Source: a virus (taxonomy: Duplodnaviria; Caudoviricetes). Taken from it: 64,000 nt of DNA. Positions 9,938 through 63,302 of this stretch are shown piece by piece. Made by a program: the position numbers and the translations under genes. The notes beneath the pieces were generated by a model. That model was given only the letters and a program-made list of their open reading frames with translations. It was not told the origin of the DNA and made no database searches. Numbering within the stretch: position 1 is the first letter of the stretch; the number at the start of each line of letters is the position of its first letter. Location of the stretch: positions 32,001 through 96,000 of IMG/VR virus record IMGVR_UViG_3300049198_000021. One strand, 5' to 3'.

Positions 9938-9941
9938 ACCA

Positions 9942-13973: not shown

Positions 13974-13977
13974 GGTG

Positions 13978-39667: not shown

Positions 39668-40058
39668 TACGCGGCGCGTGACCCCTCCCGGAGGCCCCTT
39701 CCGCGCCGGTCCCGGTAAGGTTAACGGCCCATTAACCTTTCTCCACCAGTAAGGTTAACGAAATCGGTCAATTTGTTAAGGTTAACAGCGCGTTAAGGTT
39801 AACAAACCCCTAATTTACTGCTCGTTAACCTTAACGAATATGGTTAACGGGCCATTAACCATGTTTGTTAACGTTAACGACTCGTTAAGGTTAATATGCG
39901 GAGCGATTTCGTTAAGGTTAACAGATTCGGGGCATCCGTTAACGTTAACGAGGTCTCCCCTCCCCGTTAACCATTGATCTGGAAAAAGTGCTTGACCGAA
40001 TCGGTTGCTTCTGCGACTCAGGATGCACGGCGAATCACCGCCGCTTGGAGACGACCTA

Positions 40059-40304
40059 ATGCCTTTGAAACCCGCCGCCGCTCTCAGCAAGGATAAGCTG
40101 GGCGCAAGCCACCCCGCCGCCCTCCAGCACCGGCACTTCGCCGTCATCGCTGGAATCCTCGCCAACCTCGACCGGGACAGCCTCGGCTTGACGCAAGGGC
40201 AGCACCTCAACATCTGCCAAGACTTCGCGTCCGAACTCTCCGGAACAAACCCGAAATTCGACGAGCGTCGATTCATGGTCGCTTGCGGGTTCGCGGCCCC
40301 CTGA
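40059..40304 (+). CDS. cassette gene, hypothetical
   Basis: GGAGA RBS; HF..IA...NPKFDERRFMVAC. Confidence 0.75.
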   Translation: MPLKPAAALSKDKLGASHPAALQHRHFAVIAGILANLDRDSLGLTQGQHLNICQDFASELSGTNPKFDERRFMVACGFAAP

Positions 40305-40402
40305 TGGGGTGTCTCGACGCTATCGCCCGGTTCTTTCTGGGCGTCTTTCTGTTGATCCTTGCAACTGGGCTGGCCGCGTGCCAGCCCCTTTTCTTACGGT
40401 AA
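40304..40402 (+). CDS. 32-aa lipobox micro-peptide
   Basis: MGCLDAIARFFLGVFLLILATGLAACQPLFLR; TGATG coupling; two paralogues. Confidence 0.55.
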   Translation: MGCLDAIARFFLGVFLLILATGLAACQPLFLR

Positions 40403-40568
40403 CCAGCCGTTAAGGTTAACGCGGCGGGTAATTCGTTAAGGTTAACGCGGCGGGGTAATTCGTTAAGGTTAACGCGCCGGTTGAAATCGTTAACCATCAA
40501 AGTGGAAAAGTGCTTGACCGAATCGGTTGGACCACCTAGACCCGAATCACCAACAACGGAGACAGACC
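40399..40568 (+). promoter_or_regulatory. representative cassette promoter: GTAA-N7-TTAA, TTAACCAT, A-tract, TTGACC-N17-TAGACC, two GANTC, RBS
   Basis: Direct reading; 17-bp spacer GAATCGGTTGGACCACC. Confidence 0.85.
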
Positions 40569-40820
40569 ATGAAACTGCAAGAAATTAGCACCACCGAGGT
40601 GGATGAATCGTGCCTCGACGACGACGGGAAGGTTCCTTACATCGCCTTGCATTGTGCAGCGACGGAAGCTGACGCGGCGTTCGTTATCGCACAAACGACC
40701 GACGGCTACGACGGACGCAGCGATTGGCGCTGGATTCGCCTCCCGAACGGCGATCTGATCCTTGGCGTGTTCCCGCAAGGCGACACCTATCTGCAATTCG
40801 CCGACACCATTGGCATTTAA
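40569..40820 (+). CDS. cassette gene, acidic hypothetical
   Basis: Module RBS. Confidence 0.75.
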   Translation: MKLQEISTTEVDESCLDDDGKVPYIALHCAATEADAAFVIAQTTDGYDGRSDWRWIRLPNGDLILGVFPQGDTYLQFADTIGI

Positions 40821-40834
40821 GGGGAGGCAAGTAA

Positions 40835-41203
40835 ATGAACCGCTATTTTTACGACCCGGCGACCGCCTCGTGGGGCTCGGCTGACGACCTCGAAATCTTC
40901 GAACTCGACGACCAGAACATGGACGCCGACGAAATCGAACAGGCGCTGTGCGACGCCTCGCACGTCGGGGCCGGGCTCGGCCTGAAATACCTGCTCGACC
41001 GCCGGGCCAAGAATGAGCCCTACCGCCGGGAGAACATCGGGATTCGCGCCGTGAAGGACAACGGCAAGACCGAATGGGAAGTGGTGGAGGACGACGCCGA
41101 CGCCGACGCCTTCGAACTTTACCGGCATGACACCGGGACGCTTGTCGAAGTTTGCGCCACCCGCGAAGACGCTACCGAATACTGGGAAGCGATCACCACC
41201 TAA
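40835..41203 (+). CDS. cassette gene, acidic hypothetical
   Basis: GGAGG RBS. Confidence 0.75.
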   Translation: MNRYFYDPATASWGSADDLEIFELDDQNMDADEIEQALCDASHVGAGLGLKYLLDRRAKNEPYRRENIGIRAVKDNGKTEWEVVEDDADADAFELYRHDTGTLVEVCATREDATEYWEAITT

Positions 41204-41208
41204 GGATT

Positions 41209-41234
41209 GGCGGGCTTCGGCCCGCCTTTCTTTT
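41209..41234 (+). terminator. intrinsic terminator (representative; similar hairpins close most cassettes)
   Basis: GGCGGGC-TTCG-GCCCGCC followed by TTTCTTTT. Confidence 0.85.
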
Positions 41235-41464
41235 ACCGGTAACTATTCGTTAAGGTTAACAGATTGGCTTTAGACGTTAACCATTAAAGTGGAAAAATTA
41301 GTCGAAATAGTGCTTGACCGAATCAGCGAATCATCCTAGACCAAATATCGGAATGACCCCTCCGGCGGGCCGCTCGATGACGGGGCGGATGGGGAGGAGG
41401 CGATGGGATAATCCGAAAGGATGAAGCCCACGTTAGCCCGCCAAATTGTAACAGGAGACAGACC

Positions 41465-41842
41465 ATGCAAACCATCTGGCAATTCGAAACCAAGAACTTC
41501 ACCGTCCGAATGTCTTGCGACTACGATCAGGACACCACAGACCTTTCGTGGGATGACACCGGCGAAGTCGCTGAAAAGCTGGCAAGCGGTGAATGGGCCT
41601 GCTATACCTTCCACGCCGAAGTTATCGAAAACTCCACCGTTAACACCATCGGGGAAGACTACCTCGGCGGTTCTATCTATGCCAACCCGGAAGACTTCCG
41701 GGACCATGTGGGGCTCGCAATCAAGAGCCGCGAAGATGGGCGCAACTATGGCAGCTACTTCACGGACATGATCCGCGAAGCGATCCGCGAGGCTCGCAAG
41801 ACCTACGCCGAACAGCGCCCGCGCCTTCGCGTTCCAGCCTAA
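41465..41842 (+). CDS. cassette gene, hypothetical
   Basis: Module RBS. Confidence 0.8.
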   Translation: MQTIWQFETKNFTVRMSCDYDQDTTDLSWDDTGEVAEKLASGEWACYTFHAEVIENSTVNTIGEDYLGGSIYANPEDFRDHVGLAIKSREDGRNYGSYFTDMIREAIREARKTYAEQRPRLRVPA

Positions 41843-42023
41843 GGGAGAGGGGCCTAGCGCCCCTCTTTCTTCGCCGGTAACTATTCGTTAAGGTTAACGC
41901 ATCGGGGTAATTCGTTAACCATCAAAGTGGAAAAAGTGCTTGACCGAATCACTTGAGACACCTAGAAACGAATCAGCAATGCAGGGAGCGACTCGCACCG
42001 GGCAGCTACAACGGAGATAGGCC

Positions 42024-42413
42024 ATGCCGCAAATTTTGATCGAATACACGAAGACGGAAGTCACCCGCGAACGGGTGTGGATCGAAGCCGACTCGCCCGC
42101 TGAGGCGTTGCGGGTTGTCGAGGAATATGAATTTGACAATTCGGACGCCTACGAAGTCGATTCGCTGCGCTGGGAAATCAGCGATGCTTCTGTGCATGAG
42201 GTGGAGCCCGTGGAAGTGGAAGTGCTTGTGCGCCTCCCCGTCGCCATCACATGCGAGCGCGACAACGTGGAGACCGTGGTCCACCGCGTGGCGACCGTCG
42301 CCGAAGCCGAAGAGTGGATTGCCGTGGGTCTTGCCGACGGGTTCCTTGACGAAGACGACGTGGAACAGGGCACCTACGGAATCGATGCCCCTGAGGAGAT
42401 GATAAACCCATGA
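42024..42413 (+). CDS. cassette gene, very acidic
   Basis: Module RBS. Confidence 0.75.
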   Translation: MPQILIEYTKTEVTRERVWIEADSPAEALRVVEEYEFDNSDAYEVDSLRWEISDASVHEVEPVEVEVLVRLPVAITCERDNVETVVHRVATVAEAEEWIAVGLADGFLDEDDVEQGTYGIDAPEEMINP

Positions 42414-42670
42414 CCATCATGCGCCCATTCGTGAACATAAACGGCACCAGCCGGGCCGCTCTTGTCGATCAGCGCCGCGCCGCGATGGAAGCCGTCCGGC
42501 TTGCCATGACGGCCCTGCAAGAGACCTGCCCGCATGGCCGCGACTACATCGGCGATCCGGCCCGCTTCGACCATGACCGGGGCGTCTATAACCGGCGGTT
42601 CGCCAAGCTGGACGAATTGCACAACGACTTGCTGGACGAAGCGTTAGCGATTCAGAATGGAGGGGCTTAG
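42410..42670 (+). CDS. cassette gene, hypothetical
   Basis: ATGA coupling; NGTS...PHGRDY. Confidence 0.75.
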   Translation: MTIMRPFVNINGTSRAALVDQRRAAMEAVRLAMTALQETCPHGRDYIGDPARFDHDRGVYNRRFAKLDELHNDLLDEALAIQNGGA

Positions 42671-42804
42671 GCCCCTCTATTTTTACCAGTAACTCGGCGT
42701 TAAGGTTAACACCACAGAGATCGGCCTTAACCATTAAAGTGGAAAAAGTGTTTGACCGAATCGCTTGTTTGTCATAGAACGAATCATCACAACGGAGACA
42801 GACC

Positions 42805-43134
42805 ATGAAAGACTTGCTTGACCGCTGCCTCGCCCGTCCGGGTAAAAACTTCGGAGCGGGCTATGGCTTCGCCCTCGCCTATCTGGACGACAAGATGAAC
42901 CCCGCTCACTTGCGGGACGCCGCTTGTCACATGGTCGGCAAGGCATACGGTCCCCACGGCTGGGCCGCTGCCCGTAAGAGCCCTGATCTGGCGTCATTCG
43001 TGCTGGCATACAGCGAAGCGGAATGCTTCGAAGACTTCGCAATCGAAGCGGCACAACTGCTGCTGGAATGGGGAATGCGTGGCGATCCGGACGCCGCCGC
43101 CGCGCTTCGCCTTTGCGGCCATCCGGGTTATTGA
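42805..43134 (+). CDS. cassette gene, hypothetical
   Basis: Module RBS. Confidence 0.75.
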   Translation: MKDLLDRCLARPGKNFGAGYGFALAYLDDKMNPAHLRDAACHMVGKAYGPHGWAAARKSPDLASFVLAYSEAECFEDFAIEAAQLLLEWGMRGDPDAAAALRLCGHPGY

Positions 43135-43281
43135 GGGAGGGGCTTCGGCCCCTTTCTTTTTATTCCTAACACATCGTTAAGGTTAACGCGCCGCCATTCT
43201 CCGTTAACCACTGGGATGGAGAAAGTGCTTGCTCGAATCACTTGATTGGTCTAGGGTGAAACTATCAAGAGGAGATTGCCC

Positions 43282-43515
43282 ATGAAAAACTTGCTCAAGG
43301 AATACCACCAAGCTGCTGACAGGGAAATCCAACGCTGGCCCGGCGTTGCGATTATCGAACGCAGGATCGGCAAACACGCCCGGCTGAGTCTGGAGTTTCA
43401 GGGCCGCAGGCGCTTTGTGATTCACCCGGCCTCACCCAGCGACGTTCGGGGAGTCCATCGCCACGTTCAGGATATTAAGCGCGTCCTGACTGAATTAGGT
43501 GCGAACCGGGTCTAA
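43282..43515 (+). CDS. cassette gene, possible HicA-like fold
   Basis: GKHARL...SPSDVRG...IKR pattern; AGGAG RBS. Confidence 0.5.
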   Translation: MKNLLKEYHQAADREIQRWPGVAIIERRIGKHARLSLEFQGRRRFVIHPASPSDVRGVHRHVQDIKRVLTELGANRV

Positions 43516-43597
43516 AAATAAGTGGAAAAAGTGATTGACCGAATCACTCTAACCGCCTAGACACGAATCACCGCAATCAAGCGGACGGAGACAGACT

Positions 43598-43954
43598 ATG
43601 AAAAACCTCGAAACCCGTATGAATAAGGGCCGGGACGGCTGGCAGGCAAAGACGGAAATCCCTCTCGAAGGGATCAGCATCACGGACGGCGACAAGGTGA
43701 AGCCGGCGATCCTGACGATCAGCACCCGCAAGCATTCGCGTGGCGGCCTCTCCACCGGTTGCAGCGTCGCCTTCCGCGACGGTAACTTCATGACGCACCG
43801 CGTCTATACCGACTTCAACGTCGCCTATACCCGCGACCCGAACGCTCGCTGCACCGAAAAGGCAATCGAGCGGATGCACTCCGAGGCGCTGGCGGACATT
43901 GCCACGATCGAATCAGCGGTTCGCGACCACTACGCCGCGCTCGAAGCGGAATAA
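43598..43954 (+). CDS. cassette gene (paralogue of 44115-44510)
   Basis: W.A.T..PL...ST.K.SRG.L...R.TEK.....H.E.L. Confidence 0.8.
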   Translation: MKNLETRMNKGRDGWQAKTEIPLEGISITDGDKVKPAILTISTRKHSRGGLSTGCSVAFRDGNFMTHRVYTDFNVAYTRDPNARCTEKAIERMHSEALADIATIESAVRDHYAALEAE

Positions 43955-44114
43955 GGGAAGGCGGGGAAACCCGCCTTTTCTTTTGCCCTTAGCCCGGTGT
44001 TAACCTTAACAAATCGGCCGCATTCGTTAACCATCAAAGTGGAAAAAGTGCTTGACCGAATCGCTTGTTCAACCTAGACACGAATCACCGCAATCAAGCG
44101 GACGGAGACAGACT

Positions 44115-44510
44115 ATGAACGAGACCACCGTCAAAAAAGACCACTGGGGTAAGTGGATTGCTGAAACCCGCACCCCGCTTCCCGGCATTCGCAGCATGAG
44201 CGCCACGAACAACGAAGAGCGCAACGAACCCGCCGCCTTGCTTGTCAGCACCTACAAGGACTCGCGTGGCGATCTGGTCAGCAACGCAATCGTGATCTTC
44301 ATCACGGACAGCGGCCACCGCACCGCAATCGGCGGCCCGACCGGCGACTACAGCCGCACCATCCGCCGCGAACGCGGCGCACGCGTCACCGAGAAGAAGC
44401 TTCGCAGCTATCACGCCGAATCGCTCGGCTATATCCCGCAGGTCGTCGCTGATCTGGCGAACCACTACAATCAGGGCGACCCGCTCGCCGAACGGGCGAA
44501 GGCGGCCTAA
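44115..44510 (+). CDS. cassette gene (paralogue of 43598-43954)
   Basis: Same motifs; identical leader. Confidence 0.8.
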   Translation: MNETTVKKDHWGKWIAETRTPLPGIRSMSATNNEERNEPAALLVSTYKDSRGDLVSNAIVIFITDSGHRTAIGGPTGDYSRTIRRERGARVTEKKLRSYHAESLGYIPQVVADLANHYNQGDPLAERAKAA

Positions 44511-44674
44511 AAAGACTGGCGGGCTCCGGCCCGCCTTTCTTTTGCCGGTAACCAACCGTTAAGGTTAACGCGACGAGATAATTAGTTAACCATTAAAGTG
44601 GAAAAAGTGCTTGACCGAATCAGCGAGTCACCTTATCAACGAATCACCGCAATCAAGCGGACGGAGACAAGACC

Positions 44675-45025
44675 ATGTGCAACATCGGCGGGCAGATTGG
44701 CCCCTTCATGTATAACCCGGCCTGCAAGCCGGTTGAACGCAAGGTCGGCAAGGTGACGTTCCTTGTCGGCATCGCGACCGCCTACAACGCGTTCGGCCTG
44801 ATTGGCACCGAACACAACGGCATCTTCATTCTCGACGACACGAACATGACCGTCGTCATGGACCGTCACAGCGAAGGCTCGGCTGGTGGCTTCGGCCCCT
44901 ACGGCTCGCAAGTCGCTGAGCGTGACCGCCTGCTCGCCCTGAGCGACGCGGACTTCCTCGCCTTCATTCGCAGCAACCCCCGCTTCCGTGGTGTGGACCT
45001 ACCGAACGTGGGGAAGGCCGCATGA
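44675..45025 (+). CDS. cassette gene, hypothetical
   Basis: Module RBS. Confidence 0.75.
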   Translation: MCNIGGQIGPFMYNPACKPVERKVGKVTFLVGIATAYNAFGLIGTEHNGIFILDDTNMTVVMDRHSEGSAGGFGPYGSQVAERDRLLALSDADFLAFIRSNPRFRGVDLPNVGKAA

Positions 45026-45324
45026 TCGACCGGGACAAGTTTCTCGCCATGCTCGACACACTGGAGTGTCGCGGCCTCATCAACGCACCAACAGCCTATT
45101 CAGGACGGGGAATGTATGGAAAGCGTTGCATCGCCCTGACTGGGGATTCGGTCAGCGAATGGGGCCTCGCAATCCAAATGGCGGCCATTGCCGACGAATA
45201 CGACGTGACGCCCTACGACCTGCCTGAGCCCTCGACCGATTCGATGGGACGGGGCATCGTCCTCTATTGGCGGGGCCTCGAATGGCCGGAAGACCGCCGC
45301 GATCCGGACGAAGACGAATACTAA
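45022..45324 (+). CDS. cassette gene, hypothetical
   Basis: YSGRGMYGKRC...DSMGRG; ATGA coupling. Confidence 0.75.
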   Translation: MIDRDKFLAMLDTLECRGLINAPTAYSGRGMYGKRCIALTGDSVSEWGLAIQMAAIADEYDVTPYDLPEPSTDSMGRGIVLYWRGLEWPEDRRDPDEDEY

Positions 45325-45474
45325 GGGAAGGCGGGGCAACCCGCCTTTTCTTTTGCCCTTAGCCCGGTGTTAACCTTAACAAATCGGATCAAGTAGTTAA
45401 CCATCAAAGTGGAAAAAGTGCTTGACCGAATCGCTTGTGCAACCTAGAACCGAATCACCAACAGGAGACAGACC

Positions 45475-45783
45475 ATGCGAATCAGTCACATTGAAATGAC
45501 CATCACCCTCGAAGACGGCCAGACCGTGCAGGGCCTTATCAGCCCGGAAGGCGAATCGCGCTGGGGCAATGACATTCCCCACCTCGCCGCCGCCGTGATA
45601 CCCATGGAAGCCATGGCCGCCGCCTTGCAGGAAAACGACGCGTGGGAACGCGAAGAAGAAGACGAAGACGAATACCACGGCGAATGCGGCCAGTGCGAAG
45701 GCACCGGCACAATCGAAGGCGGGCTTGGCGGTGATGGGGACGACGAAGAATGCCCTGTCTGTGACGGAAGCGGGGAACTCTGA
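45475..45783 (+). CDS. acidic protein with DnaJ-type CxxCxGxG zinc finger
   Basis: CGQCEGTG...CPVCDGSG. Confidence 0.75.
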   Translation: MRISHIEMTITLEDGQTVQGLISPEGESRWGNDIPHLAAAVIPMEAMAAALQENDAWEREEEDEDEYHGECGQCEGTGTIEGGLGGDGDDEECPVCDGSGEL

Positions 45784-46025
45784 TGCACAAGACCCCGCCC
45801 GCAATCGACACCAGCGTTACCGTCCAACTCTGGACGCCCGGCGGCTTGATTGTCAGCATCCCCGCCGGGTTCATTACGTCCGATCCCGTCCGGGCTTCGC
45901 TCGACAAGCGGACGCAAGAAGGCGACACACACGCGGCAATCACCATGGCCCGGCACACCGGCCTAGACGTAACCATCCGCCGGGAAACCCAGACCACCGT
46001 TCGCGCCTCCGATCTGGAGGCGTGA
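45783..46025 (+). CDS. cassette gene, hypothetical
   Basis: TGATG coupling. Confidence 0.6.
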   Translation: MHKTPPAIDTSVTVQLWTPGGLIVSIPAGFITSDPVRASLDKRTQEGDTHAAITMARHTGLDVTIRRETQTTVRASDLEA

Positions 46026-46151
46026 GCGCCCGTTTACCAGCCGTTAACCTTAACAAATTGAACTAACTTGTTAACCGCTGATCTGGAAAAAGTGCTTGAC
46101 CAAATGCAACGGCTCGCCTAGAAACGAATCAGTTGAAACGGAGACAAGACC

Positions 46152-46709
46152 ATGTTTGATGCACTCGACCAGAAGACTTTCATCCTTTGCGGGCTCGCAA
46201 TCGAAGCGGCGGCGGATGACGACGAATCAATCGACAAGCGCGACCCGTCAAAGCTGGAATATCAGCGCGGCTCCGAAGTCACCGGGGTGGCATGGCTGAG
46301 CGGCTATGACTCACGGGGTGACGCCCCGCCTTGCCTGCAAAAGGTGATCGACTCGCACTATGACGCGCAAAACGCCGAATGGAAGCGGCAATATCCGGAC
46401 CGCCCCGATCTGCACCTTTGCGTGGATTATGCCGACGCCCTCCCCTACGCTGGGGAAGCTGAGGAATGGCTGGACGCCGTGCTGAGCGGCCCGGACGGGC
46501 GCGGGGAAGCCGCCTATCTGCAAATCGAAGTCACTTTCGACGACGATACGGTTCAATGGTGGGCGCGCTTTACCGATGAAATCAACGCCCCGCTATCCGA
46601 AGGCGGGCGCGGCGAAATGGACGCCGAAGCGTTCCTTGCGCTGGACGACGACGCGCTGGAAACGCTCGCAAAGGAGATTGCCGAGTCGGCTTATGACTAC
46701 GGCGCTTGA
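46152..46709 (+). CDS. cassette gene, acidic
   Basis: Module RBS. Confidence 0.8.
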   Translation: MFDALDQKTFILCGLAIEAAADDDESIDKRDPSKLEYQRGSEVTGVAWLSGYDSRGDAPPCLQKVIDSHYDAQNAEWKRQYPDRPDLHLCVDYADALPYAGEAEEWLDAVLSGPDGRGEAAYLQIEVTFDDDTVQWWARFTDEINAPLSEGGRGEMDAEAFLALDDDALETLAKEIAESAYDYGA

Positions 46710-46850
46710 AGACTGGCGGGCTCCGGCCCGCCTTTCTTTTGCCGGTAACCAGCCGTTAACCTTAACAAGTCGTTACCACTAGGTGGAAAAAGTGATTGAC
46801 CGAATCGGTTGTGTCTCCTAGAAACGAATCAGTTGAAACGGAGACCGACC

Positions 46851-47147
46851 ATGAGCATCACATACCACACCACCCTGCCCGCTTGGGAACACGGTGAACT
46901 CGATGAAAGAGGCTGCCTACGCCCGACGAAAGGTAAGCTGATCTGGAGCAATACCAACCCGCCTCCGGCGATTGGCGACCGCGTTCGCATCCGCGTCAAC
47001 GGCATCGGCATGGCGACCGTGGAGTCCTACTTCGAACAGGAAGGCTATCTCGGCATCCTGACGACCGTTGACGCTTGGCCGACGTTCTTCGCCAAGCAGA
47101 ACGGCGAGGACCGCTCCTGCCACGCGTTCGGCGCTGAAATCGCTTAA
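46851..47147 (+). CDS. cassette gene, hypothetical
   Basis: Module RBS. Confidence 0.75.
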   Translation: MSITYHTTLPAWEHGELDERGCLRPTKGKLIWSNTNPPPAIGDRVRIRVNGIGMATVESYFEQEGYLGILTTVDAWPTFFAKQNGEDRSCHAFGAEIA

Positions 47148-47309
47148 AGACTGGCGGGCTCCGGCCCGCCTTTCTTTTGCCGGTAACCAGCCGTTAACCT
47201 TAACAAATCGGCCTAAGTTGTTAACCATCAAAGTGGAAAAACTACTTGACCGAATCGGCTGGAACGCATAGAAACGAATCACCGCAATCAAGCGGTTGGA
47301 GACCTGACC

Positions 47310-47732
47310 ATGCCTAAGTGGCAATACACCGGCGATATGTCGCTTGAATATGGCGGCTTCTACTGGAAAGACGAGGGTGATCCCGAGTCGGTGGAAGCCC
47401 TCAAGGTCACCCCTTGCAGCGACGCGGGCGGCCCCGACAACCTGTTCCACGTCGAATCGGGAACGGTCTACATGAACCCCGAACGCCTCGAATCGGCACT
47501 GGATGTCATCGGGCTCACGCCTGAAACGGCAAGCCGGGATGATGTGATCTACGCGTTCCAAGCCTATTCAGGACTGGACCGGGACGCCTACGGCGGCGAG
47601 CGGGTGATTCGCATCGGTCCGGATGAATCCGACTACATGCGCCGGTCCGGCGGGTGGAACCCGGAACCCGACGTAATCCTGCGCGCTGGGACCGATCTTC
47701 GCAAGTGGATTGAACGCAACTGGCTGGATTAG
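47310..47732 (+). CDS. cassette gene, hypothetical
   Basis: Module RBS. Confidence 0.8.
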   Translation: MPKWQYTGDMSLEYGGFYWKDEGDPESVEALKVTPCSDAGGPDNLFHVESGTVYMNPERLESALDVIGLTPETASRDDVIYAFQAYSGLDRDAYGGERVIRIGPDESDYMRRSGGWNPEPDVILRAGTDLRKWIERNWLD

Positions 47733-47864
47733 GTTAGGGGCTTAGGCCCCTTTCCTTTCCCGGTAACCTGCCGTTAACCTTAACAATCGGTTACCATTAA
47801 GTGGAAAAAGTGCTTGACCGAATCGGTTGTCTAACCTAGAACGAATCATCTAAGGAGACAGACC

Positions 47865-52996: not shown

Positions 52997-53007
52997 GGGG
53001 CTCGACC

Positions 53008-55249: not shown

Positions 55250-55576
55250 ATGCTTTCACTGGATCAATACACTGGCCGCCACGAAGCCGCCGCCGTTCGC
55301 CGCCTGATCGGGCACGCCCTCGCACAAGACTGGACGGTGAGCGTCAATGACGGGGAAGAATGGACCGTCAAGAAATCCCGCGACAGCGACGAAATTCTGG
55401 CGGCGCTCGCCACAACCGGCGAAGACACCCTGAAATTCCGCGACCCGGAAGGCAAGGCCGTCGGGACTATGTATCTGGTTTATCAGGGCGGCGACAACCC
55501 CGGCGACGAAGTTGTTTGCGACTACAGCGACAACGAATCGATGGATTATCTCTACCGCCGGACATTCCCGGCTTGA
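55250..55576 (+). CDS. cassette gene, hypothetical
   Basis: Module RBS. Confidence 0.8.
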   Translation: MLSLDQYTGRHEAAAVRRLIGHALAQDWTVSVNDGEEWTVKKSRDSDEILAALATTGEDTLKFRDPEGKAVGTMYLVYQGGDNPGDEVVCDYSDNESMDYLYRRTFPA

Positions 55577-55751
55577 CAACGGGCGGGGAGGGAAAACCCT
55601 CCCCGTTGCCGATTCGTTCCATGGTTAACGGAATCGGAGGATTTGTTAAGGTTAACGAATGGGTTAAAGTTGTTAACCATCAAAGTGGAAATAGTGCTTG
55701 ACCGAATCGCCTATGCCGACTAGAAACGAATCAGTTGAAACGGAGACAGCA

Positions 55752-55904
55752 ATGGCGAAAAACTGGGAAGCGTTCTTTGCAGCGATGAGCGATTCCGATC
55801 TACTATCGGCACAGCTTACTTGGGGCCGTGAGGGGGAGGACAGCGAAAACTTGGAAGCTTGGGCTGCCGTGAATCAGGAAGTTTTCGAACGGGGTTTGGA
55901 GTAG
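55752..55904 (+). CDS. cassette gene, 50-aa acidic
   Basis: Module RBS. Confidence 0.65.
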   Translation: MAKNWEAFFAAMSDSDLLSAQLTWGREGEDSENLEAWAAVNQEVFERGLE

Positions 55905-55930
55905 GGGCTGCGGCCCCTCTCTTTCTGCTC

Positions 55931-55945
55931 TTAACCCGGCGTTAA
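55931..55945. promoter_or_regulatory. perfect CtrA box TTAA-N7-TTAA (others at 39721, 39782, 39844, 39874, 56326, 58875, 60875)
   Basis: TTAA-CCCGGCG-TTAA matches the established alphaproteobacterial CtrA consensus. Confidence 0.7.
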
Positions 55946-56059
55946 GGTTAACGTAATGAGGTAAATCGTTAACCATAGAAGTGGAAATTAAATGGAAAAA
56001 GTGCTTGACCGAATCAGCGAATCACCTTAGACCGGGATCACCAACAACGGAGACGACCG

Positions 56060-56293
56060 ATGGAACTCGCTGAATACTTCACTTGCCCGGACCGCCCGAC
56101 CTTCCTGCAATTCGGCAAGCTGGTGAATGCCCGCCTCGAATCGCGCTGCGGCCTCGGCATCCTCGACTTGCCGGATCAGGATTATTCCAGCCTTCACGAA
56201 GACTGGGACGGGACCGTCCAGCACGCCTGTGACATCGCAGACGAAATCCTCGAAGAAGAAGGCTTCGGGATGGATGAAGATTACGACTTTTGA
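56060..56293 (+). CDS. cassette gene, very acidic
   Basis: Module RBS. Confidence 0.75.
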   Translation: MELAEYFTCPDRPTFLQFGKLVNARLESRCGLGILDLPDQDYSSLHEDWDGTVQHACDIADEILEEEGFGMDEDYDF

Positions 56294-56460
56294 GAGAAGG
56301 GGCTTCGGCCCCTTTTCTTTTGCCCTTAACTCCGCGTTAAGGTTAACAGATCGGACCACTTTGTTAACCATTAAAATGCAAGCAAGTGGAAAAAGTGCTT
56401 GCACGAATCAGTGGCCTAGGGCAAACGAATCAGGCGACACAGAGCCGCCGGAGACGACCT

Positions 56461-56760
56461 ATGACAACCCTGAGCATCAAGACCGCCCGCCCCGCCGCCA
56501 CCATCCGCGCCGAGCGCATCGCCTACGATCGCATCCCCGCGACGCCCGCCGAGCGCGCCACCGCCCTCGCCCTCCTGATCGACGGGGACGCATGGACCCT
56601 CGCCGAATACGTCGCGTGGATCAACCGCGACGCCGCCACCTTCGCCCTCATGGGTGCGGCTGAGTGGGCCGAGCGCGGCATCACCACCGCTTCCGCCCTT
56701 GGCGACCTTCTGGACGCCGAGAATGAGCGCAACCTGAGAAAAGAGGCCATGTATGGCTAA
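56461..56760 (+). CDS. cassette gene, hypothetical
   Basis: Module RBS. Confidence 0.75.
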   Translation: MTTLSIKTARPAATIRAERIAYDRIPATPAERATALALLIDGDAWTLAEYVAWINRDAATFALMGAAEWAERGITTASALGDLLDAENERNLRKEAMYG

Positions 56761-57157
56761 GAAACTAGCCGCCGCTTATGCGGCTGTCACCGAGGCACAC
56801 AAAGCCCACGAAGACGCCCTAAACGCCGCTGAGGCCGCTTTGACGGATCATGTGGAGCAAATGCTAACCGAACTCGCCAAGCGGTTCCCGCGCCGACGCT
56901 TCTACGCCTCATCAGGGATGGGAAGCCTTTCTATCGAAGTCTATCCCGGACCTAAGCCGCGTTACGCACACCACCCGCGCCAGCCTTACAAATGGTTCTG
57001 GGGCGGAATGTGGGGACCGGATAACACTTGGCGATTCCTGTGGCAGGATTGGGAAGACCTGCTCGATTCGTTCATCAAAGAGACCGGGCAGACCGCTAAC
57101 GATTACGTCAACTTCACCCGTGAACTTGACGTGAGGGGCACACGCTACAAGGATTAA
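56753..57157 (+). CDS. cassette gene, hypothetical
   Basis: GAGG RBS, overlap. Confidence 0.7.
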   Translation: MAKKLAAAYAAVTEAHKAHEDALNAAEAALTDHVEQMLTELAKRFPRRRFYASSGMGSLSIEVYPGPKPRYAHHPRQPYKWFWGGMWGPDNTWRFLWQDWEDLLDSFIKETGQTANDYVNFTRELDVRGTRYKD

Positions 57158-57292
57158 GGGAAGGGCGGACCGCCGCCCTTTTCCTTGTTAGTGGTTCGTT
57201 AAGGTTAACCAATCCTGCCACTTGAGTGGAAAAAGTGCTTGACCGAATCAGTGGAGCCGCCTAGACCGGGCTGACCAACACGGAGATTTTCT

Positions 57293-57544
57293 ATGACCTC
57301 GATTCGCGACCTCGCCCACGCCCGCCACCTCGTCGCCACCGGCGAAGCCGCCGCTCGCATGGCCCGCACCTCGCAGCAGGCCGAAAACCTGCGGATCGCG
57401 TTCGTGGAGCGCTGGGAGGCGCTTGGCGACCTCACCACCTGCGCCGCCATTGATGAAGGCAAATGGCTTGACAGCCAAATCAAGGAACTGGATTGCGACT
57501 GGGGCGACCCTGTATCGCCTGAATGCGAATGGCACCTGCACTAA
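57293..57544 (+). CDS. cassette gene, hypothetical
   Basis: Module RBS. Confidence 0.7.
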   Translation: MTSIRDLAHARHLVATGEAAARMARTSQQAENLRIAFVERWEALGDLTTCAAIDEGKWLDSQIKELDCDWGDPVSPECEWHLH

Positions 57545-57711
57545 GGGCGCGGGCTTCGGCCCGCCTCTTGGCTGGTAACGGTTTGTTAAGGTTAACGCCC
57601 GACCGGAATTTGTTAACCATCAAAATGGAAAGTAAGTGGAAAATTGCTTGACCGAATCGGCTTAGACTGGCACTAACGAATCACCGCAATCAAGCGGACG
57701 GAGACAAGACT

Positions 57712-57798
57712 ATGAGCCGACACCAGAAACGCCGCCTTGCCGCCAAGCGTGCGCGCATCGCCATTCTTTCCTCGTGGATCGCAAAGGGCCGCCGCTAA
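57712..57798 (+). CDS. 28-aa basic peptide
   Basis: MSRHQKRRLAAKRARIAILSSWIAKGRR after module RBS; TAATG coupling. Confidence 0.6.
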   Translation: MSRHQKRRLAAKRARIAILSSWIAKGRR

Positions 57799-58064
57799 TG
57801 GCTGGCTTCTGGGATCGCGTGGACACCCTCGAAATGGTGGAACTCTACGCCGAGGACAACGGGCAGATTGCCAGCGAAGAGGAGCTTTCCAAGCGCTTTG
57901 ACGCCGAAATCCTTCCGCTCGTGCTGGAGCAATACAGCGAGTCCGATACGGTCGCAATCAATGAGGCTTTCAACGATTGGACCGATTCGCTCTGCAAGGA
58001 CGGCGAAATCCACCCGGATCAATACGATTCTTACTGCTACGTTGGGAGGCTGGCAGACGACTAA
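57798..58064 (+). CDS. cassette gene, very acidic
   Basis: EAFNDWTDSLCKDG motif. Confidence 0.75.
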   Translation: MAGFWDRVDTLEMVELYAEDNGQIASEEELSKRFDAEILPLVLEQYSESDTVAINEAFNDWTDSLCKDGEIHPDQYDSYCYVGRLADD

Positions 58065-58173
58065 GGCGAGGGGCTTCGGCCCCTCACCAAACTTTTTTCG
58101 TAATTAGTGGAAAAAGTGCTTGACCGAATCAGTTGGCTCGCCTAGAAACGAATCAACAGCAACGGAGGCAGTC

Positions 58174-58326
58174 ATGCAGATCAACACTTACCACGTTTAC
58201 ATCAACAACACCTTTTCCGGGATCATCTCGGCGGTGTCTTACCGGCAGGCTCTCAAGCGCGCCAAGGCAAAGCATCGCGGCCCGGTTGACGTGATCGGGT
58301 TCGTCTCCGCAAAGGCGAAGGTTTAA
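58174..58326 (+). CDS. cassette gene, small basic
   Basis: GGAGG RBS; resembles the N-terminus of 63030-63302. Confidence 0.65.
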   Translation: MQINTYHVYINNTFSGIISAVSYRQALKRAKAKHRGPVDVIGFVSAKAKV

Positions 58327-58488
58327 GGGGAGGGGCTTCGGCCCCTCTTTCTTTTTGCCTGTTACGATCTGTTAACCTTAACAAATATGGTTAACAAATT
58401 AACGTTTGGCGTTAACCATTAAAGTGGAAAAAGTGCTTGACCGAAGCAGTGACTCGTGTGAAAACGAATCATCAATCGGAGACAGATC

Positions 58489-58668
58489 ATGAAGAATCGC
58501 AACACCCTTGACGCCCGTTACAGCATCCGCCTCGAATGGTGCGGACACGCCACGCAACAATGGGTCGCCCGCTTCTGTGGTGATTGGCTGGGCTGCGATG
58601 CAACCCGCTCGGGCGCTGAGGAAATCGCCCGGCTTTATGAGCGCGACCGCTGGGCGGTGGCGGCATGA
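58489..58668 (+). CDS. cassette gene (59 aa)
   Basis: Own translation MKNRNTLDARYSIRLEWCG... Confidence 0.7.
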   Translation: MKNRNTLDARYSIRLEWCGHATQQWVARFCGDWLGCDATRSGAEEIARLYERDRWAVAA

Positions 58669-58841
58669 AACCGAAACACCCTTGCAGCGTAAAGCGCGAC
58701 GCAATTTTTCTGGCCGCTGTAAAGCATCCCTTCACCCGGTGGAACGAACACACAGGCGAACAACAAGCCAGATTTATCAAGCAGGCCACGCATATCCGGG
58801 AGCATCTGCGGGATTACGAACCGGGAGCATTCATCGACTAG
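58665..58841 (+). CDS. cassette gene (58 aa)
   Basis: ATGA coupling; followed by terminator. Confidence 0.55.
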   Translation: MKPKHPCSVKRDAIFLAAVKHPFTRWNEHTGEQQARFIKQATHIREHLRDYEPGAFID

Positions 58842-58990
58842 CAAGAGGCGGGAGCGATCCCGCCTTTCGCATTGTTAACCCAGTGTTAAGGTTAACATAT
58901 TGGTCTAAGTTGTTAACCATCAAAGTGGAAAAAGTGATTGACCGAATCAGCAAATCGGCCTAGACCCGAATCATCAACCGGAGACAGATC

Positions 58991-59119
58991 ATGCAAAACA
59001 TCCGCAAGAACCCCATCGCCGCCTCGCTCGCCAGCGCCCACCTCGTCCCTCGCAAGGTTCGCGCTCGCAAGGGCAAGGGCTCTTTCCGCCGCAACCCGAA
59101 ACACCGGGGCGCGGCGTGA
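58991..59119 (+). CDS. ArfA-like (alternative ribosome-rescue factor A) peptide, 42 aa
   Basis: MQNIRKNPIAASLASAHLVPRKVRARKGKGSFRRNPKHRGAA; KGKGS(Y/F)xRxxKH signature; module RBS; missing from ORF track. Confidence 0.7.
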   Translation: MQNIRKNPIAASLASAHLVPRKVRARKGKGSFRRNPKHRGAA

Positions 59120-59460
59120 GCGACCGCATCCGCCCCGTGGTTTTCGACTCGGCCCAGATCGAGCCCTTTGCCGCTCGCATCATCGGCATAGCCGCTTCGC
59201 AATTCTGTCGCCTCAAGGAGCGCGAGAAAGAGACCGGAGAGAAGTCGGACCCCTTCGACATGGAAGACGCTCTGATGCACCTCTGGTGGGCTCTCAAGGG
59301 GCTTGACCACATCGCAATAGCGTTGCGCGGCGGCAGGGATTGCGACGACCCGTCTGGCGTTCATTTTTCCATGGTGATGAACGCAGAACACGCCCGGATT
59401 CGCCGCCTTATCATGGAAGAACTCGGAGTCGATCCCGGATCACACCCGCGCTGGAAATGA
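59116..59460 (+). CDS. cassette gene, hypothetical
   Basis: GTGA coupling. Confidence 0.65.
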   Translation: MSDRIRPVVFDSAQIEPFAARIIGIAASQFCRLKEREKETGEKSDPFDMEDALMHLWWALKGLDHIAIALRGGRDCDDPSGVHFSMVMNAEHARIRRLIMEELGVDPGSHPRWK

Positions 59461-59613
59461 GGGGCTTCGGCCCCTCTTTCTTTTCTGGTAACCGTTCGTT
59501 AACCTTAATAAACGGCCCGAAATCGTTAACCATCAAAGTGGAAAAAGTGCTTGACCGAATCAGCGAATCGGCCCATACCCGAATCACCGCAACCAAGCGG
59601 ACGGAGACAGTCA

Positions 59614-59904
59614 ATGCAGACCAACGATCCCAGCGCCGTCACCCACCACAACGGAGGCACCACCTTCACCGGCGACGCCATCCACCTCTACCGCGCCGTG
59701 ACCCTCAAGGGCGCTCTCAAGCTGCACCGCGATTGCGGCATGATCCCGACTCGCGGCATGACCATCACAAAGATGTTCGCCATCGCCCAGCAGATCACCG
59801 GCAAGAAGTATAAGCGCGGCGGCCATGATGCGGCCATCACCGACCTGACCGCGTGGATCGAAGCCGCCAAGGCATCCATGCCGATCATCGACGAGCGGAC
59901 CTGA
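59614..59904 (+). CDS. cassette gene, hypothetical
   Basis: Module RBS; ITGKKYKRG. Confidence 0.75.
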   Translation: MQTNDPSAVTHHNGGTTFTGDAIHLYRAVTLKGALKLHRDCGMIPTRGMTITKMFAIAQQITGKKYKRGGHDAAITDLTAWIEAAKASMPIIDERT

Positions 59905-60132
59905 AAGGAGATTGGTTAACGGGGAAGCCCTCCCCGTTAACCATATTTCCGGCTGGTAACCAGTCGTTAAGGTTAACAGCGCCGCAGCATTCCTTAACCA
60001 TCAAAGTGGAAAGTAAGTGGAAAAAGTGGTTGCACGAATCAGCGAATCGGTCTAGACCCGAATCACCGGGCGGCACCTACTGACTGGCAGAGCAGCGGCA
60101 AGGCTCGCCCGGTAAACAACAGGAGACAGACC

Positions 60133-60294
60133 ATGTTCGAAGTGATCACTACGCTCCGCACCTTCTATGTGCAGGCTGACACTTTCAACCTCGCCGTCCT
60201 CTCGGCTTATCAATTCATTCTGGACGACGAATCGATCCTCGGCATCAAGACCGACGGACCTGCAACGTTCATCATCGTGGAGATCGCAGCATGA
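60133..60294 (+). CDS. cassette gene (53 aa)
   Basis: Own translation MFEVITTLRTFYV... Confidence 0.65.
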   Translation: MFEVITTLRTFYVQADTFNLAVLSAYQFILDDESILGIKTDGPATFIIVEIAA

Positions 60295-60509
60295 TCAGCA
60301 AGAAAGACGCAATCGCCAAGGCAATCGCGGCTGGAGCCTCGCAAGAGGAAATCGACCGCCAAGCCGCAAACTACGTCCGCCAAGTGGGCAGCGTGCCTTT
60401 CAACAACATGATTCGCGCCCTTAACCTAGGCCCGTGGCTCAACACGGTTGACGACTGGACCCCGCTGGCAGCAGCCCTGACCGCGAGGGGATTGGCGCGA
60501 AAGCGCTAA
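60291..60509 (+). CDS. cassette gene, hypothetical
   Basis: ATGA coupling. Confidence 0.7.
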   Translation: MISKKDAIAKAIAAGASQEEIDRQAANYVRQVGSVPFNNMIRALNLGPWLNTVDDWTPLAAALTARGLARKR

Positions 60510-60629
60510 TTCCTTAACGGAATAGGGGAATTTGTTAAGGTTAACCCGAATTAAGAATAAAGTGGAAAAAGTGCTTGACCGAATCGGTTAACCATCCTAG
60601 AAACGAATCAACAGCAACGGAGACACACC

Positions 60630-60842
60630 ATGAAGATCAAGATCAAGACCACCGCCCGCTACACCGCCAAGCGCAAGGCTGCTATCATCGCCGACGTGGA
60701 CAACGGCACTACCACCCTCGAAGAGGTTTGCAGCCTGCACAACATCACAAGCGAAGAGTTCGACGGCTGGCGCAAGTCGCTGGACCGCTCGGGACAGCAG
60801 GGGCTTCGGATCACCCGGCTGCAACACTACCGGGCAGCATAA
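60630..60842 (+). CDS. sciP: SciP-like CtrA inhibitory protein (DUF1153)
   Basis: RYTAKRKAAII..V.NG...LEEVC....ITSEEF..W...LDR.G..GLRITRLQHYR aligns gaplessly with recalled SciP RWVxRRKAEVV..V.GG...LEEAC....LTxEEF..W...IDRHG..GLRxTRxQxYR. Confidence 0.85.
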   Translation: MKIKIKTTARYTAKRKAAIIADVDNGTTTLEEVCSLHNITSEEFDGWRKSLDRSGQQGLRITRLQHYRAA

Positions 60843-60972
60843 GGGAAGGGGCTTCGGCTCTTTTTCTTTTGCCTTTAACCCAGTGTTAAGGTTAACAAGT
60901 CAACTGAATTAGTTAACTAATTAGCTGGAAAAAGTGCTTGACCGAATCAGCGAATCGGCCTAGACCCAAGCC

Positions 60973-61140
60973 ATGGAAATGACCCTTTCAGAAATCCGCC
61001 ACAAGCGTGACCGGGCAATCGTTCAGCGCCGACTCGGCGAGGAACGCCGCCGCCACGTTAACCAATGCGTCGCCGACATCATCGCACAAGGAAAGATGGA
61101 AGAGCGCCGCCAGACCACCCGACGGGAGGAAGACCAATGA
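60973..61140 (+). CDS. cassette gene (55 aa), possibly leaderless
   Basis: ATG 6 nt after the TAGACC -10 hexamer; no RBS. Confidence 0.5.
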   Translation: MEMTLSEIRHKRDRAIVQRRLGEERRRHVNQCVADIIAQGKMEERRQTTRREEDQ

Positions 61141-61337
61141 CAGACCGCCGATTCGTAATTGTCGAAAACGCCGGATATGAAGGCGAGCAAGACATCACCC
61201 ACTTTCTCACCTTGCGGGAGGCATTCGCCTATCAGCGCGGCCATTATGAGCCGGACGAGATCGAAGAATTGCACGTCGATATTCGCCAAGACTGGACGGA
61301 CGAAAACGGCGATTTTCATCAGGAATATGTCTATTAG
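61137..61337 (+). CDS. cassette gene, acidic
   Basis: GGAGG RBS; ATGA coupling. Confidence 0.7.
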   Translation: MTDRRFVIVENAGYEGEQDITHFLTLREAFAYQRGHYEPDEIEELHVDIRQDWTDENGDFHQEYVY

Positions 61338-61404
61338 GTGGAAAAAGTGCTTGACCGAATCGGTGGCCTATGCGAAAACGAATCATCGAAACGGAGACAA
61401 GCAA

Positions 61405-61599
61405 ATGACCACCATCCTGATCCTCGCCGCCGCCGCCCTGATCTTCGCCACCGTGGCATTTTTCAAGGCCCGCGCCGAACTCGCCGCTCACGCCGCCGAA
61501 CAGGCAAGCAAGCATATCCCCAACCCCACCATCTACAGCGGCCCGCGCTTCACCGCACATGGCCGGGAAATCCAACAGACCGGACGGCGGATCATCTGA
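61405..61599 (+). CDS. cassette gene, single-TM protein
   Basis: MTTILILAAAALIFATVAFF. Confidence 0.7.
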   Translation: MTTILILAAAALIFATVAFFKARAELAAHAAEQASKHIPNPTIYSGPRFTAHGREIQQTGRRII

Positions 61600-61755
61600 G
61601 AAAGGGGCGGGAGAAATCCCGCCCTTTTCTTTGGCCGGTAACCGGGTGTTAAGGTTAATAAAACGGTGAAATTCGTTAATCATCAAAGTGGAAAAAGTGC
61701 TTGACCGAATCGGTTGGCGAGTTTAGACCCGAATCATTGGAAACGGAGACAGACC

Positions 61756-61953
61756 ATGAGCAAGCCCACCGAACAAGCAATCGCCGCCGACCTCGACCTT
61801 TGCGACATGATCCTTGCATTCGGAACGCCCGCCGCCAAGCGAAAGGCCCGCGCCCACCGCAAGGCTTGTTTCGCAGAAATCGCCCGGATGAACGCCGAGG
61901 CCGGGACTGACAAACTGAGCGATGATGAATTGCTCGCTGAATTGATGGCCTGA
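61756..61953 (+). CDS. cassette gene, hypothetical
   Basis: Module RBS; LSDDELLAEL tail. Confidence 0.75.
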   Translation: MSKPTEQAIAADLDLCDMILAFGTPAAKRKARAHRKACFAEIARMNAEAGTDKLSDDELLAELMA

Positions 61954-62141
61954 TAGGAACCGGCCCCTGACAACAGGGGCCGGGACCCTAATTCACTGAG
62001 AACAAGGGCCGGGCTCTAAAATCGTAAATTCAGGTTAACCTTAACAGATCGGTCGAAATCGTTAACTATTAAAGTGGAAAAAGTGCTTGACCGAATCGTT
62101 TGGCGCGTTTAGACCCGAATCATTGAAAACGGAGACAGACC

Positions 62142-62417
62142 ATGGAAAGATTCGAACTGACGGGCTCGGGCATCAGCGACGGGCAGAATCCGGAAAAACT
62201 GCTTGCTGCCGCGAAAAAGTGCGGCCTTCGGAATCCCCGACTCGCCTATCACTACGGCTGGTCCAATCAGCCGAAAACGATTCGTTTCAGCGCCGAAAAC
62301 TGGGAAGCTGCCGATAAGGTCGCCGATCTGGTGCGAACCGAGTTTTACCCGGAAAACGCCGAGGGCCGTTTGTGCCCGATGATTCGGGCCTATCCGGTAA
62401 AAGCCCCAGAAGCCTGA
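62142..62417 (+). CDS. cassette gene, hypothetical
   Basis: Module RBS. Confidence 0.75.
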   Translation: MERFELTGSGISDGQNPEKLLAAAKKCGLRNPRLAYHYGWSNQPKTIRFSAENWEAADKVADLVRTEFYPENAEGRLCPMIRAYPVKAPEA

Positions 62418-62590
62418 TCCCGGAAAAGCCCGATTCGCCGAATCGGGCTTTTTCCTTTTTCGGTAACCCTGCGTTAACCTTAATAAAACGGCGAAAATCG
62501 TTAACCCTAAAAATCGGCCTTTCTGGAAAAAGTGCTTGACCGAATCGGCCTTTTCTGGAAAAACCGGACCACCGCAAAGGGAGAAAAGAC

Positions 62591-62746
62591 ATGATCAGCA
62601 TGGAAGCGATTATTGGGGGCCTTATTTCGGGGTTCGCTGTGCGCCTCTATGGTGCAGGGCTTGCTCTCTATGTGGGCCTGTCTGCAAGCGACCTTATCAG
62701 CAGCACCTATGGGAGCGTGGCTGCTACCCTAGCCACCCTGCCCTAG
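62591..62746 (+). CDS. 51-aa hydrophobic peptide
   Basis: Own translation MISMEAIIGGLISGFAVRLYGAGLALYVGLSASDLISSTYGSVAATLATLP; GGAGA RBS. Confidence 0.55.
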   Translation: MISMEAIIGGLISGFAVRLYGAGLALYVGLSASDLISSTYGSVAATLATLP

Positions 62747-63029
62747 CCCACTCTGCCCTACCTAGGGCTGTGTGTGCGCTGCGCTCGGCTGCTATGGATT
62801 GGGGTCATTTTGCGTATGTGCGTGCGCGTGTGTGTGTGTGCGACTGACTGCCAGCGTGGCTGCCCTCGCCTGCCAGCGTGGCTGTCACCCTCCCAGCCCA
62901 TAGGGCATGGGCTGCCCTTCCCCTGCCCTAGCAGGTGGAAAAACAAACTCACAAACAAATGGATTTTGTTATTGATTTGGTAACGAATCGATGCGATAAG
63001 GGGACATCGAAAGCGAACGGAGAAACAAC

Positions 63030-63302
63030 ATGACCAACCTGATCCCCACCTTCCGCGTCTATAAGAACAAGGTCCTTGTCGGCACCGTGTCGGCCACGAC
63101 TGAACAGCAGGCACATGCCCGCGCATATGGCAAGTATGGCCGTTGCGAAGTCATGAAGGCTGACATGGAGCGCCGCCTTAGCACTGCGGGCCGTGTGGAG
63201 CGCGCTGACAGCAGCTTCACCCATGGCCGTAGCCCCTACCCCACCCCCGGCTTTGAGGCACGCCGCGCCGCTGAAATCGCCCGCTGGAAAGCGGGCGAAT
63301 AA
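63030..63302 (+). CDS. last cassette gene, hypothetical
   Basis: GGAGA RBS. Confidence 0.7.
   Translation: MTNLIPTFRVYKNKVLVGTVSATTEQQAHARAYGKYGRCEVMKADMERRLSTAGRVERADSSFTHGRSPYPTPGFEARRAAEIARWKAGE

Follow-up and report, generated by a model that had tools for sequence, protein, structure and literature searches.

The 64,000-nucleotide window analyzed here (bases 32,001 to 96,000 of IMG/VR record IMGVR_UViG_3300049198_000021, a 176.5-kb viral genome rated complete) contains 42 copies of one control module, each placed ahead of one or two small orphan genes. Comparison with related genomes identified this run as a real and very regular cassette array in a new phage lineage, similar to the promoter-early stem-loop (PeSL) elements of T4-type phages and with comparative evidence for module-mediated shuffling. 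These comparisons showed that relatives differ at the modules: cassettes have been removed, replaced, or moved as whole units, and chimeric modules mark the junctions. The best explanation, and one that we consider probable, is that the array represents the hyperplastic region of early genes in a PhiCbK-like siphovirus, in which homologous shuffling between modules is combined with regulation by the host. Coordinates are given in window numbering unless marked as genome positions.

A repeated control module and its orphan genes

Copies aligned on the -35 element revealed a module of about 170 nucleotides (nt). Its first part runs from a GC-rich hairpin with a T-rich tail through GGTAACC and the 12-mer GTTAA-SS-TTAAC to, about 15 nt further on, GTTAACCAT. 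Its second part comprises an A-tract, a TTGACC -35, a 17-nt spacer, a -10 of the TAGAAA type, CGAATCA, a short leader of one of a few types, and the ribosome site GGAGAC, which lies 5 to 6 nt before the ATG (module 13 is laid out in Table 1 as a worked example). The 22-nt promoter core occurred 39 times with at most 3 mismatches and 40 times with at most 4, always on the plus strand and between 39,981 and 62,546 (chance expectation, 0); the rest of the genome held one further copy only. With two divergent copies added to the 40 canonical ones, the array has 42 modules, all on the plus strand between 39,981 and 63,029, as a preliminary description of the window had proposed in speaking of 41 or 42 cassettes that share one regulatory module. 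Module alignment also bore out its statement that almost every one or two genes have their own terminator, TTAA boxes, A-tract, -35 and -10 elements, and ribosome binding site. A hairpin precedes 36 of 41 modules, with a clear T tail in at least 25. The 12-mer occurs in either orientation, and 48 of its 49 genome copies lie within the array region; the boxes are wholly absent from three modules. The -10 element resembles what we take to be the alphaproteobacterial type. Promoters of the Escherichia coli type were rejected as a description of the modules, none of which was picked up by a TTGACA/TATAAT scan.

The cargo consists of 57 open reading frames (ORFs) and one ORF of 28 codons, about 1.4 per module. 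That it is mostly unrelated, as previously described, was confirmed by a cargo-against-cargo tblastx comparison, which gave three weak paralogue pairs only. No Pfam match was obtained for 55 of the 57 proteins, and the 17 matches to PHROG families were all to families of unknown function. Named families were matched by two proteins only, one SciP-like and one ArfA-like. Many of the products are small and strongly acidic, and roles in host takeover or anti-defence are plausible for them.

By similarity of DNA and of the large terminase, the genome is kin to Erythrobacter phages XM05 and vB_EliS-L02 (L02) and to Sphingobium phage Lacusarx, a group that belongs to the PhiCbK-like siphoviruses (PMC9127768). 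Related phage contigs and loci (G001 to G004 and L-numbered loci) were also used for comparison, and the 577-amino-acid terminase ORF led to 24 related viral loci. An array of this kind was present at the corresponding place, between the large terminase gene and phoH/portal, in XM05, L02, and Lacusarx. Modules numbered 30 or 31 in XM05, 32 in G002, 29 in G003, and 26 or 27 in G001 and G004; in L02, L027, and Lacusarx, the boxes and the layout are kept and the promoter core has diverged.

Regulator words and their possible readers

The 25-kb array region makes up 14% of the genome and holds 8 of the 9 genome copies of TTAA-N7-TTAA, 42 of the 43 copies of KTAA-N7-TTAAS, and 33 of the 35 copies of TTAACCAT. 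The SciP word derived from chromatin immunoprecipitation is (G/A)TTAACCAT(A/G) (PMC4083442). In PhiCbK-like phages, among them Lacusarx, CtrA sites cluster in the terminal repeats, and promoters of the PhiCbK repeat are bound and activated by CtrA, as shown for gp5 and gp18 (Mascolo et al. 2022, PMC9437464). Judged by these words, the TTAA boxes are of the CtrA/SciP type. In every promoter, moreover, the -35 is followed directly by GANTC and the -10 by CGAATCA; each promoter has two copies of the heptamer preferred by GcrA/CcrM. TGATTCG, the reverse complement of CGAATCA and the reported GcrA consensus (PMC4647560), has 67 of its 97 genome copies in the array region. In the relative L029, the heptamer is flipped at the same position, which fits a site for a protein that binds double-stranded DNA. 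Sampled genomes of the likely host family, Sphingomonadaceae, encode GcrA and SciP.

In the regulation that we propose, the module promoters would be read by host RNA polymerase and stimulated by host CtrA, bound upstream of the -35 at (G/T)TAA-N7-TTAA and TTAACCAT words. GcrA could assist at the two methylatable CGAATCA/TGATTCG words that flank the -10, and a SciP-like phage product may later shut the promoters off. We lean toward CtrA wiring of the array and put forward the link to GcrA as a tentative suggestion. The presence of regulator words in each module suggests that expression depends on the state of the host rather than being unconditional.

Several results weigh against such wiring. 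The 12-mer was rejected as a host regulatory word, with 6 occurrences in 81 Sphingomonadaceae genomes versus about 55 for a reversed control, and its TTAA-N2-TTAA spacing differs from the CtrA spacing. GTTAACCAT was only about 1.5-fold enriched in host-family genomes. The GANTC sites lie at about -27 and -3; for the GcrA targets of Caulobacter, somewhat different positions have been reported, at -20 and +2 to +30 (PMC4647560). A GcrA, an OmpR-type CtrA regulator, and a CcrM-type methylase were sought among the phage-encoded proteins, and none was found; any such control must therefore use host proteins.

A different reading takes the boxes as operators at which a phage-encoded regulator, for example the SciP-like protein or another early product, would shut the array off, and not as sites for host CtrA. 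The 12-mer is phage specific and does not have the spacing of CtrA sites, large box-only clusters lie ahead of the array, and a protein of the SciP family is encoded within it. This protein, the cargo of cassette 35, matched Pfam DUF1153 (E = 3.5e-20), showed 45% identity over 66 amino acids to SciP of a Sphingomonadaceae genome, and is kept in G001, G002, and XM05. Against the NCBIfam profile "CtrA inhibitor SciP," it scored 68.2 bits, below the cut-off of 100, over profile positions 28 to 90 of 90; on these matches, it is a divergent, N-terminally shortened relative of SciP and does not reach the full-length family definition. The operator reading must, however, contend with the fact that GTAA/TTAA-N7-TTAA and TTAACCAT are CtrA/SciP words, with the activation of promoters by CtrA in the homologous PhiCbK region, and with the flagging by a CtrA matrix of Lacusarx, which has the same boxes (PMC9437464). 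Both readings can also hold, with CtrA as the on-switch and a phage factor as the off-switch. We regard operators in place of CtrA sites as unlikely.

Host control of the modules can be carried one step further, to a reading that we advance with considerable doubt. The array may be a plug-and-play early-expression platform in an iteron-bracketed terminal repeat, in which an inserted gene would inherit the full circuit, i.e., firing in CtrA-active cells, a boost from GcrA, and collective shutoff by the SciP homologue and perhaps also by an RNA directed against the ribosome site. If this is true, one repeated stretch of 170 nt serves both to sense the host cell cycle and to shuffle genes, and firing is restricted to CtrA-active (motile, infectable) cells.

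The composite box1-spacer-box2 word had 8 matches in 596 Gb of bacterial genomes, none pointing to a common host promoter design. One of the matched contigs, L055 (JAYVXT010000122.1, 2,468 nt, from a metagenome-assembled genome bin of Bryobacterales), has three box1-spacer-box2 modules and is almost certainly a misbinned fragment of a related phage array. In three Sphingomonadaceae genomes (G023:C1:1336458, G027:C3:118224, and G029:C8:38454), TTAACCAT-N20-TTGAC was found with GATTC in between (reversed control, 0); this word has 20 N rather than the 17 of the phage, so that the phage spacing is not represented in it, and may be a conserved host promoter of the CtrA type.

Cassette exchange between relatives

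Contigs G001 and G004, from different samples, are 99.95% identical over 20.3 kb, and their sole structural difference is a 762-bp cassette, which is present in G004. The short form (G001) is a perfect chimeric module with the crossover in AAAGTGGAAAAA, just upstream of the -35, where a 12-nt identical run lies inside a 22-nt stretch with one mismatch. The same short form was found in three other contigs or samples, and one contig terminates exactly at the junction. The 762-bp cassette is a homologue of window cassette 3 and is also present in G002, G003, and XM05; deletion is therefore the likelier direction. Comparison of G004 with the window gave further chimeras: the crossover lies at GGTAAC/12-mer in module 2, within 15 nt of the ribosome site and ATG in module 20, and at the terminator tail in module 21, and module 5 is a three-way mosaic. 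In G002, cassettes 2 and 3 stand in reversed order, and both flanks are flush with a module.

Across the array, 87 of 105 matched cargo flanks ended no more than 25 nt from a module border, and 78 of 121 alignment ends fell in modules, which make up 34% of the array (binomial p = 1.3e-11). The order of cassettes is collinear with that of G001 apart from 15 absences, differs from that of G002 by two local swaps, and is scrambled in the first half relative to XM05 and G003; all five genomes share 11 of the 40 cassettes. Alignment to G002 covered 59% of the array versus 78% of the rest of the genome. The preliminary description had tied its proposal, that recombination between modules adds, deletes, and reorders cassettes, to breakpoints inside modules and to a gene order that is not fixed among relatives. 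Breakpoints (with one exception) and gene order behaved in this way, and the proposal is largely sustained by the chimeras, the 762-bp cassette, and the swaps.

The modules, as compared here, evolve in concert within a genome. Position -7 is T in 27 of 29 G003 modules versus A in 128 of 129 modules of four other genomes, and the T of G003 holds before orthologous cargo too. Likewise, spacers are alike within genomes and not between orthologues. Terminators and leaders of the various types have been freely reassorted among the modules of the window.

These patterns are those that general homologous recombination, of the phage or of the host, would produce by acting on the 100 to 170 nt over which the modules are nearly identical. 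If two modules cross over unequally, the cassettes between them would be removed or added, and exchange between coinfecting relatives would swap cassettes. A gene landing between two modules would be insulated by the terminator and would gain the common promoter and ribosome site.

Three results weigh against homologous exchange and favor instead a reading in which the modules are conserved only because promoters and terminators are needed and are not a recombination substrate, the rearrangements being products of illegitimate recombination and of selection that spares genes. First, the modules fill every intergenic gap, so that surviving junctions must fall there; selection against broken genes alone would therefore favor junctions in modules. 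Second, the module 17 deletion in G004 runs from the promoter spacer to the inside of a gene. Third, the stretch at 24 to 32 kb of the window, which has no modules, is more variable than the array, with only 11 to 22% of its length alignable to G002. Illegitimate recombination does not, however, account readily for scarless, in-register junctions within runs of 12 to 15 identical bases, for lineage-specific base changes that have spread to nearly all modules (those of orthologous genes included), or for the reassortment of terminator and leader types. Both the chimeras, scarless and in register, and the concerted evolution speak for events driven by homology, and we consider the alternative of illegitimate recombination improbable.

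In a further alternative, the array would be transcribed mainly into long read-through RNAs that start at a few promoters, and the hairpins would be RNA-stability or processing elements rather than terminators. All genes do point in one direction, a hairpin is missing from five modules, and the T tails of several hairpins are weak. Nevertheless, the forty -35/-10 pairs are close to consensus, with spacers of exactly 17 nt, and have been retained across relatives less than 80% identical in DNA, and most hairpins have the A-rich and T-rich flanks of intrinsic terminators, which makes read-through a very improbable account of the array.

The crossover points vary within the module and therefore indicate general homologous exchange between repeats, as in T4-type PeSLs, rather than a site-specific reaction. 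The integron-like character attributed to the array beforehand was not upheld, as crossovers occurred at four module places (the A-tract, GGTAAC/box, the ribosome site and start, and the terminator tail) with no fixed site. The accompanying term "integrase-free" fits the array but not the genome, in which a tyrosine recombinase (Phage_integrase) was matched by a 210-amino-acid open frame outside the window (genome positions 169554 to 170126). A tyrosine recombinase was unexpected here, the cultured relative L02 being described as lytic; no serine recombinase was found in the genome. A dedicated, integron-like recombinase that recognizes the palindromic 12-mer or the hairpins is most improbable: the 12-mer is near-palindromic, is used in either orientation, and hardly occurs in host genomes, but only one of the four crossover places lies beside it, the single recombinase gene is 75 kb away, the cassettes have their own promoters, unlike those of integrons, and three modules have no boxes at all.

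Known systems and the surroundings of the array

The PeSL elements of T4-type myoviruses (Arbiol et al. 2010, PMC2839356; Comeau et al. 2014, PMC4122927) have the same order of stem-loop terminator, AT-rich tract, -35, -10, and ribosome site, in roughly 100 nt or more. They flank orphan genes in a hyperplastic region, where close relatives differ by cassettes with one chimeric element left behind and where crossover points vary. By its sequence, the array likewise combines a composite element, orphan genes flanked by it in a variable region, and chimeric exchange, and the PeSL precedent invoked in the preliminary description (PMC2839356) was apt, the composite-element logic being the same. The array differs in that (i) it belongs to a PhiCbK-like siphovirus of Sphingomonadales and has no sequence relation to PeSLs; (ii) its -10 is of the alphaproteobacterial type; (iii) its 42 elements form one unbroken, one-way run of 23 kb, whereas PeSLs are scattered; and (iv) it adds CtrA/SciP boxes, two GANTC heptamers, and a shared leader and ribosome site. 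Measured promoter and terminator activity and excised minicircles are further marks of PeSLs. Given its siphovirus kin and the lack of matches in the TTGACA/TATAAT scan, the array is therefore an analogue of PeSLs and not a member. To our knowledge, promoter-terminator cassettes that drive modular shuffling have so far been described only for T4-type myoviruses. To find the same principle in a siphovirus family unrelated to these suggests that it is a route by which large lytic phages in general renew their stock of early genes. The array is denser and cleaner than the T4-type case, and a probable natural deletion could be seen between near-identical genomes. Its roughly 58 orphan proteins, presumably early and many of them strongly acidic, are a ready list for host-takeover and anti-defence screens, and its modules provide 42 natural variants of one promoter for dissecting control by CtrA, SciP, and GcrA/CcrM in Sphingomonadales.

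Integrons are, like the array, ordered one-way runs of small unrelated cassettes gained and lost as units; the array differs in lacking attI/attC, a neighboring integrase, and a fixed crossover point, and each of its cassettes has a promoter and a terminator. In phage T5, the pre-early (first-step-transfer) region lies in the terminal repeat at the leading genome end and holds small host-takeover genes with strong host-type promoters. It is a similar block of small genes, without the design of one module per gene, and is mentioned in passing in PMC3556154.

The terminal repeats of PhiCbK-like phages, discussed in terms of "lytic deferment" (PMC9437464), belong to the same supergroup and occupy the same place after the large terminase gene. 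They hold many small genes of unknown function and, as in the array, have CtrA-type words concentrated in the intergenic gaps; by its concentration of words, the array classes as a CtrA-site-dense region of a PhiCbK-cluster phage. In PhiCbK, 10 kb contain about 20 genes together with 5 repeated promoter motifs and 5 annotated terminators, whereas the array has a full module for every one or two genes. Turnover of sites and rearrangements between PhiCbK-like relatives have been noted (PMC9437464); module-mediated cassette exchange, the GANTC pair, and a phage SciP homologue are features of the array that the consulted parts of that paper do not mention.

The terminal repeat of PhiCbK begins in the terminase gene (PMC3556154) and has in common with the array region GGGACCC repeats, 12-mers, and the promoter word GGTAAC-N-GTTAAC. 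On this comparison, the array lies where PhiCbK has its terminal repeat rich in CtrA sites, and the array is therefore probably the first DNA to enter the cell. Parts 1 to 14,000 and 116,500 to 130,138 of the Lacusarx record list no repeat feature. GGGACCC-containing repeats lie at 38700 to 38870 in the window, between the terminase gene and the array, and the equivalent place in PhiCbK (L044:877-981) has four GGGGACCCT repeats. GGGACCC-like words also occur within some modules (at 53.7, 54.2, and 62.0 kb).

Iterons bracket the array, with a cluster at the left edge and a single copy at the right (Table 1). The left and right copies share their orientation, and no further copy of the motif exists in the 176-kb genome; the same bracket is present in G001, G004, G002, and XM05. 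The iterons could be terminal-repeat boundaries, an origin, or a pause signal for DNA entry.

Table 1. Positions of the array, its worked-example module, and associated features
Feature	Position	Strand	Remarks
Forty canonical modules with cassettes	39981..62590	+	-35 starts 39,992 ... 62,536; mean spacing ~580 nt
Module 13 (worked example)	47153..47312	+	Hairpin 47,153-47,170; T tail 47,171-47,180; GGTAACC 47,182-47,188; 12-mer 47,193-47,204; GTTAACCAT 47,220-47,228; A-tract 47,229-47,245; -35 47,246-47,251; first GANTC 47,252-47,256; -10 47,269-47,274; CGAATCA 47,275-47,281; GGAGAC 47,298-47,303; ATG 47,310
Divergent module 41	49567..49722	+	Normal terminator, GGTAACC, and 12-mer; weak -35; ahead of gene 49,723-50,157
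Divergent module 42 and last gene	62930..63302	+	Module to ~63,029; gene 63,030-63,302; right end of array
Large terminase gene	36754..38487	+	Left anchor of array in every relative; homologues annotated terminase large subunit in XM05, L02, and Lacusarx
First box-only cluster	38483..38675	.	Six 12-mers interleaved with TTAACCAT words; same cluster behind terminase gene in XM05 and L02
Iterons	39505..39668	+	6-7 tandem copies of ~20 nt; left array edge
Second box cluster	39714..39949	.	Eight 12-mers; perfect palindrome ATGGTTAA-N7-TTAACCAT at 39,840-39,862; just ahead of first promoter
Single iteron copy	62794..62813	+	Right array edge
Cassette 35 cargo, SciP-family (DUF1153) helix-turn-helix protein, 70 amino acids	60630..60842	+	Without ~24 N-terminal residues
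Cassette 32 cargo, 42-amino-acid basic peptide, ArfA (alternative ribosome-rescue factor A) family	58991..59119	+	Pfam ArfA E = 3e-07
Structured 5' leader, cassette 34	60058..60130	+	Invariant ~30-nt core within stem of variable sequence
Leader copies in related loci	L009:18648-18720; L010:17316-17392; L025:10352-10432; L039:876-948; L042:4965-5037

Some cargo genes call for separate comment. The ArfA match was placed on its ORF in cassette 32 through a KGKGS-type motif and not by a per-protein scan. The 28-codon ORF (57712 to 57798) is very basic, starts from the ATG of its module, and shares one base with the start of the next gene (TAATG). The ORF at 41,421 to 41,771 was rejected as a frame of odd composition, and that at 41,465 to 41,842 was preferred. 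No other phage carrying the cargo of cassette 11 was found.

The window, the cassette 34 leader included, had no match to an Rfam family. Homologues of this leader precede different genes in XM05, L02, L025, G002, and G004. TGTCTCC at genome position 101,528, in a stretch (101200 to 101570) that begins 5.2 kb past the window end, is a 7-nt complement of the GGAGACA ribosome site shared by the array.

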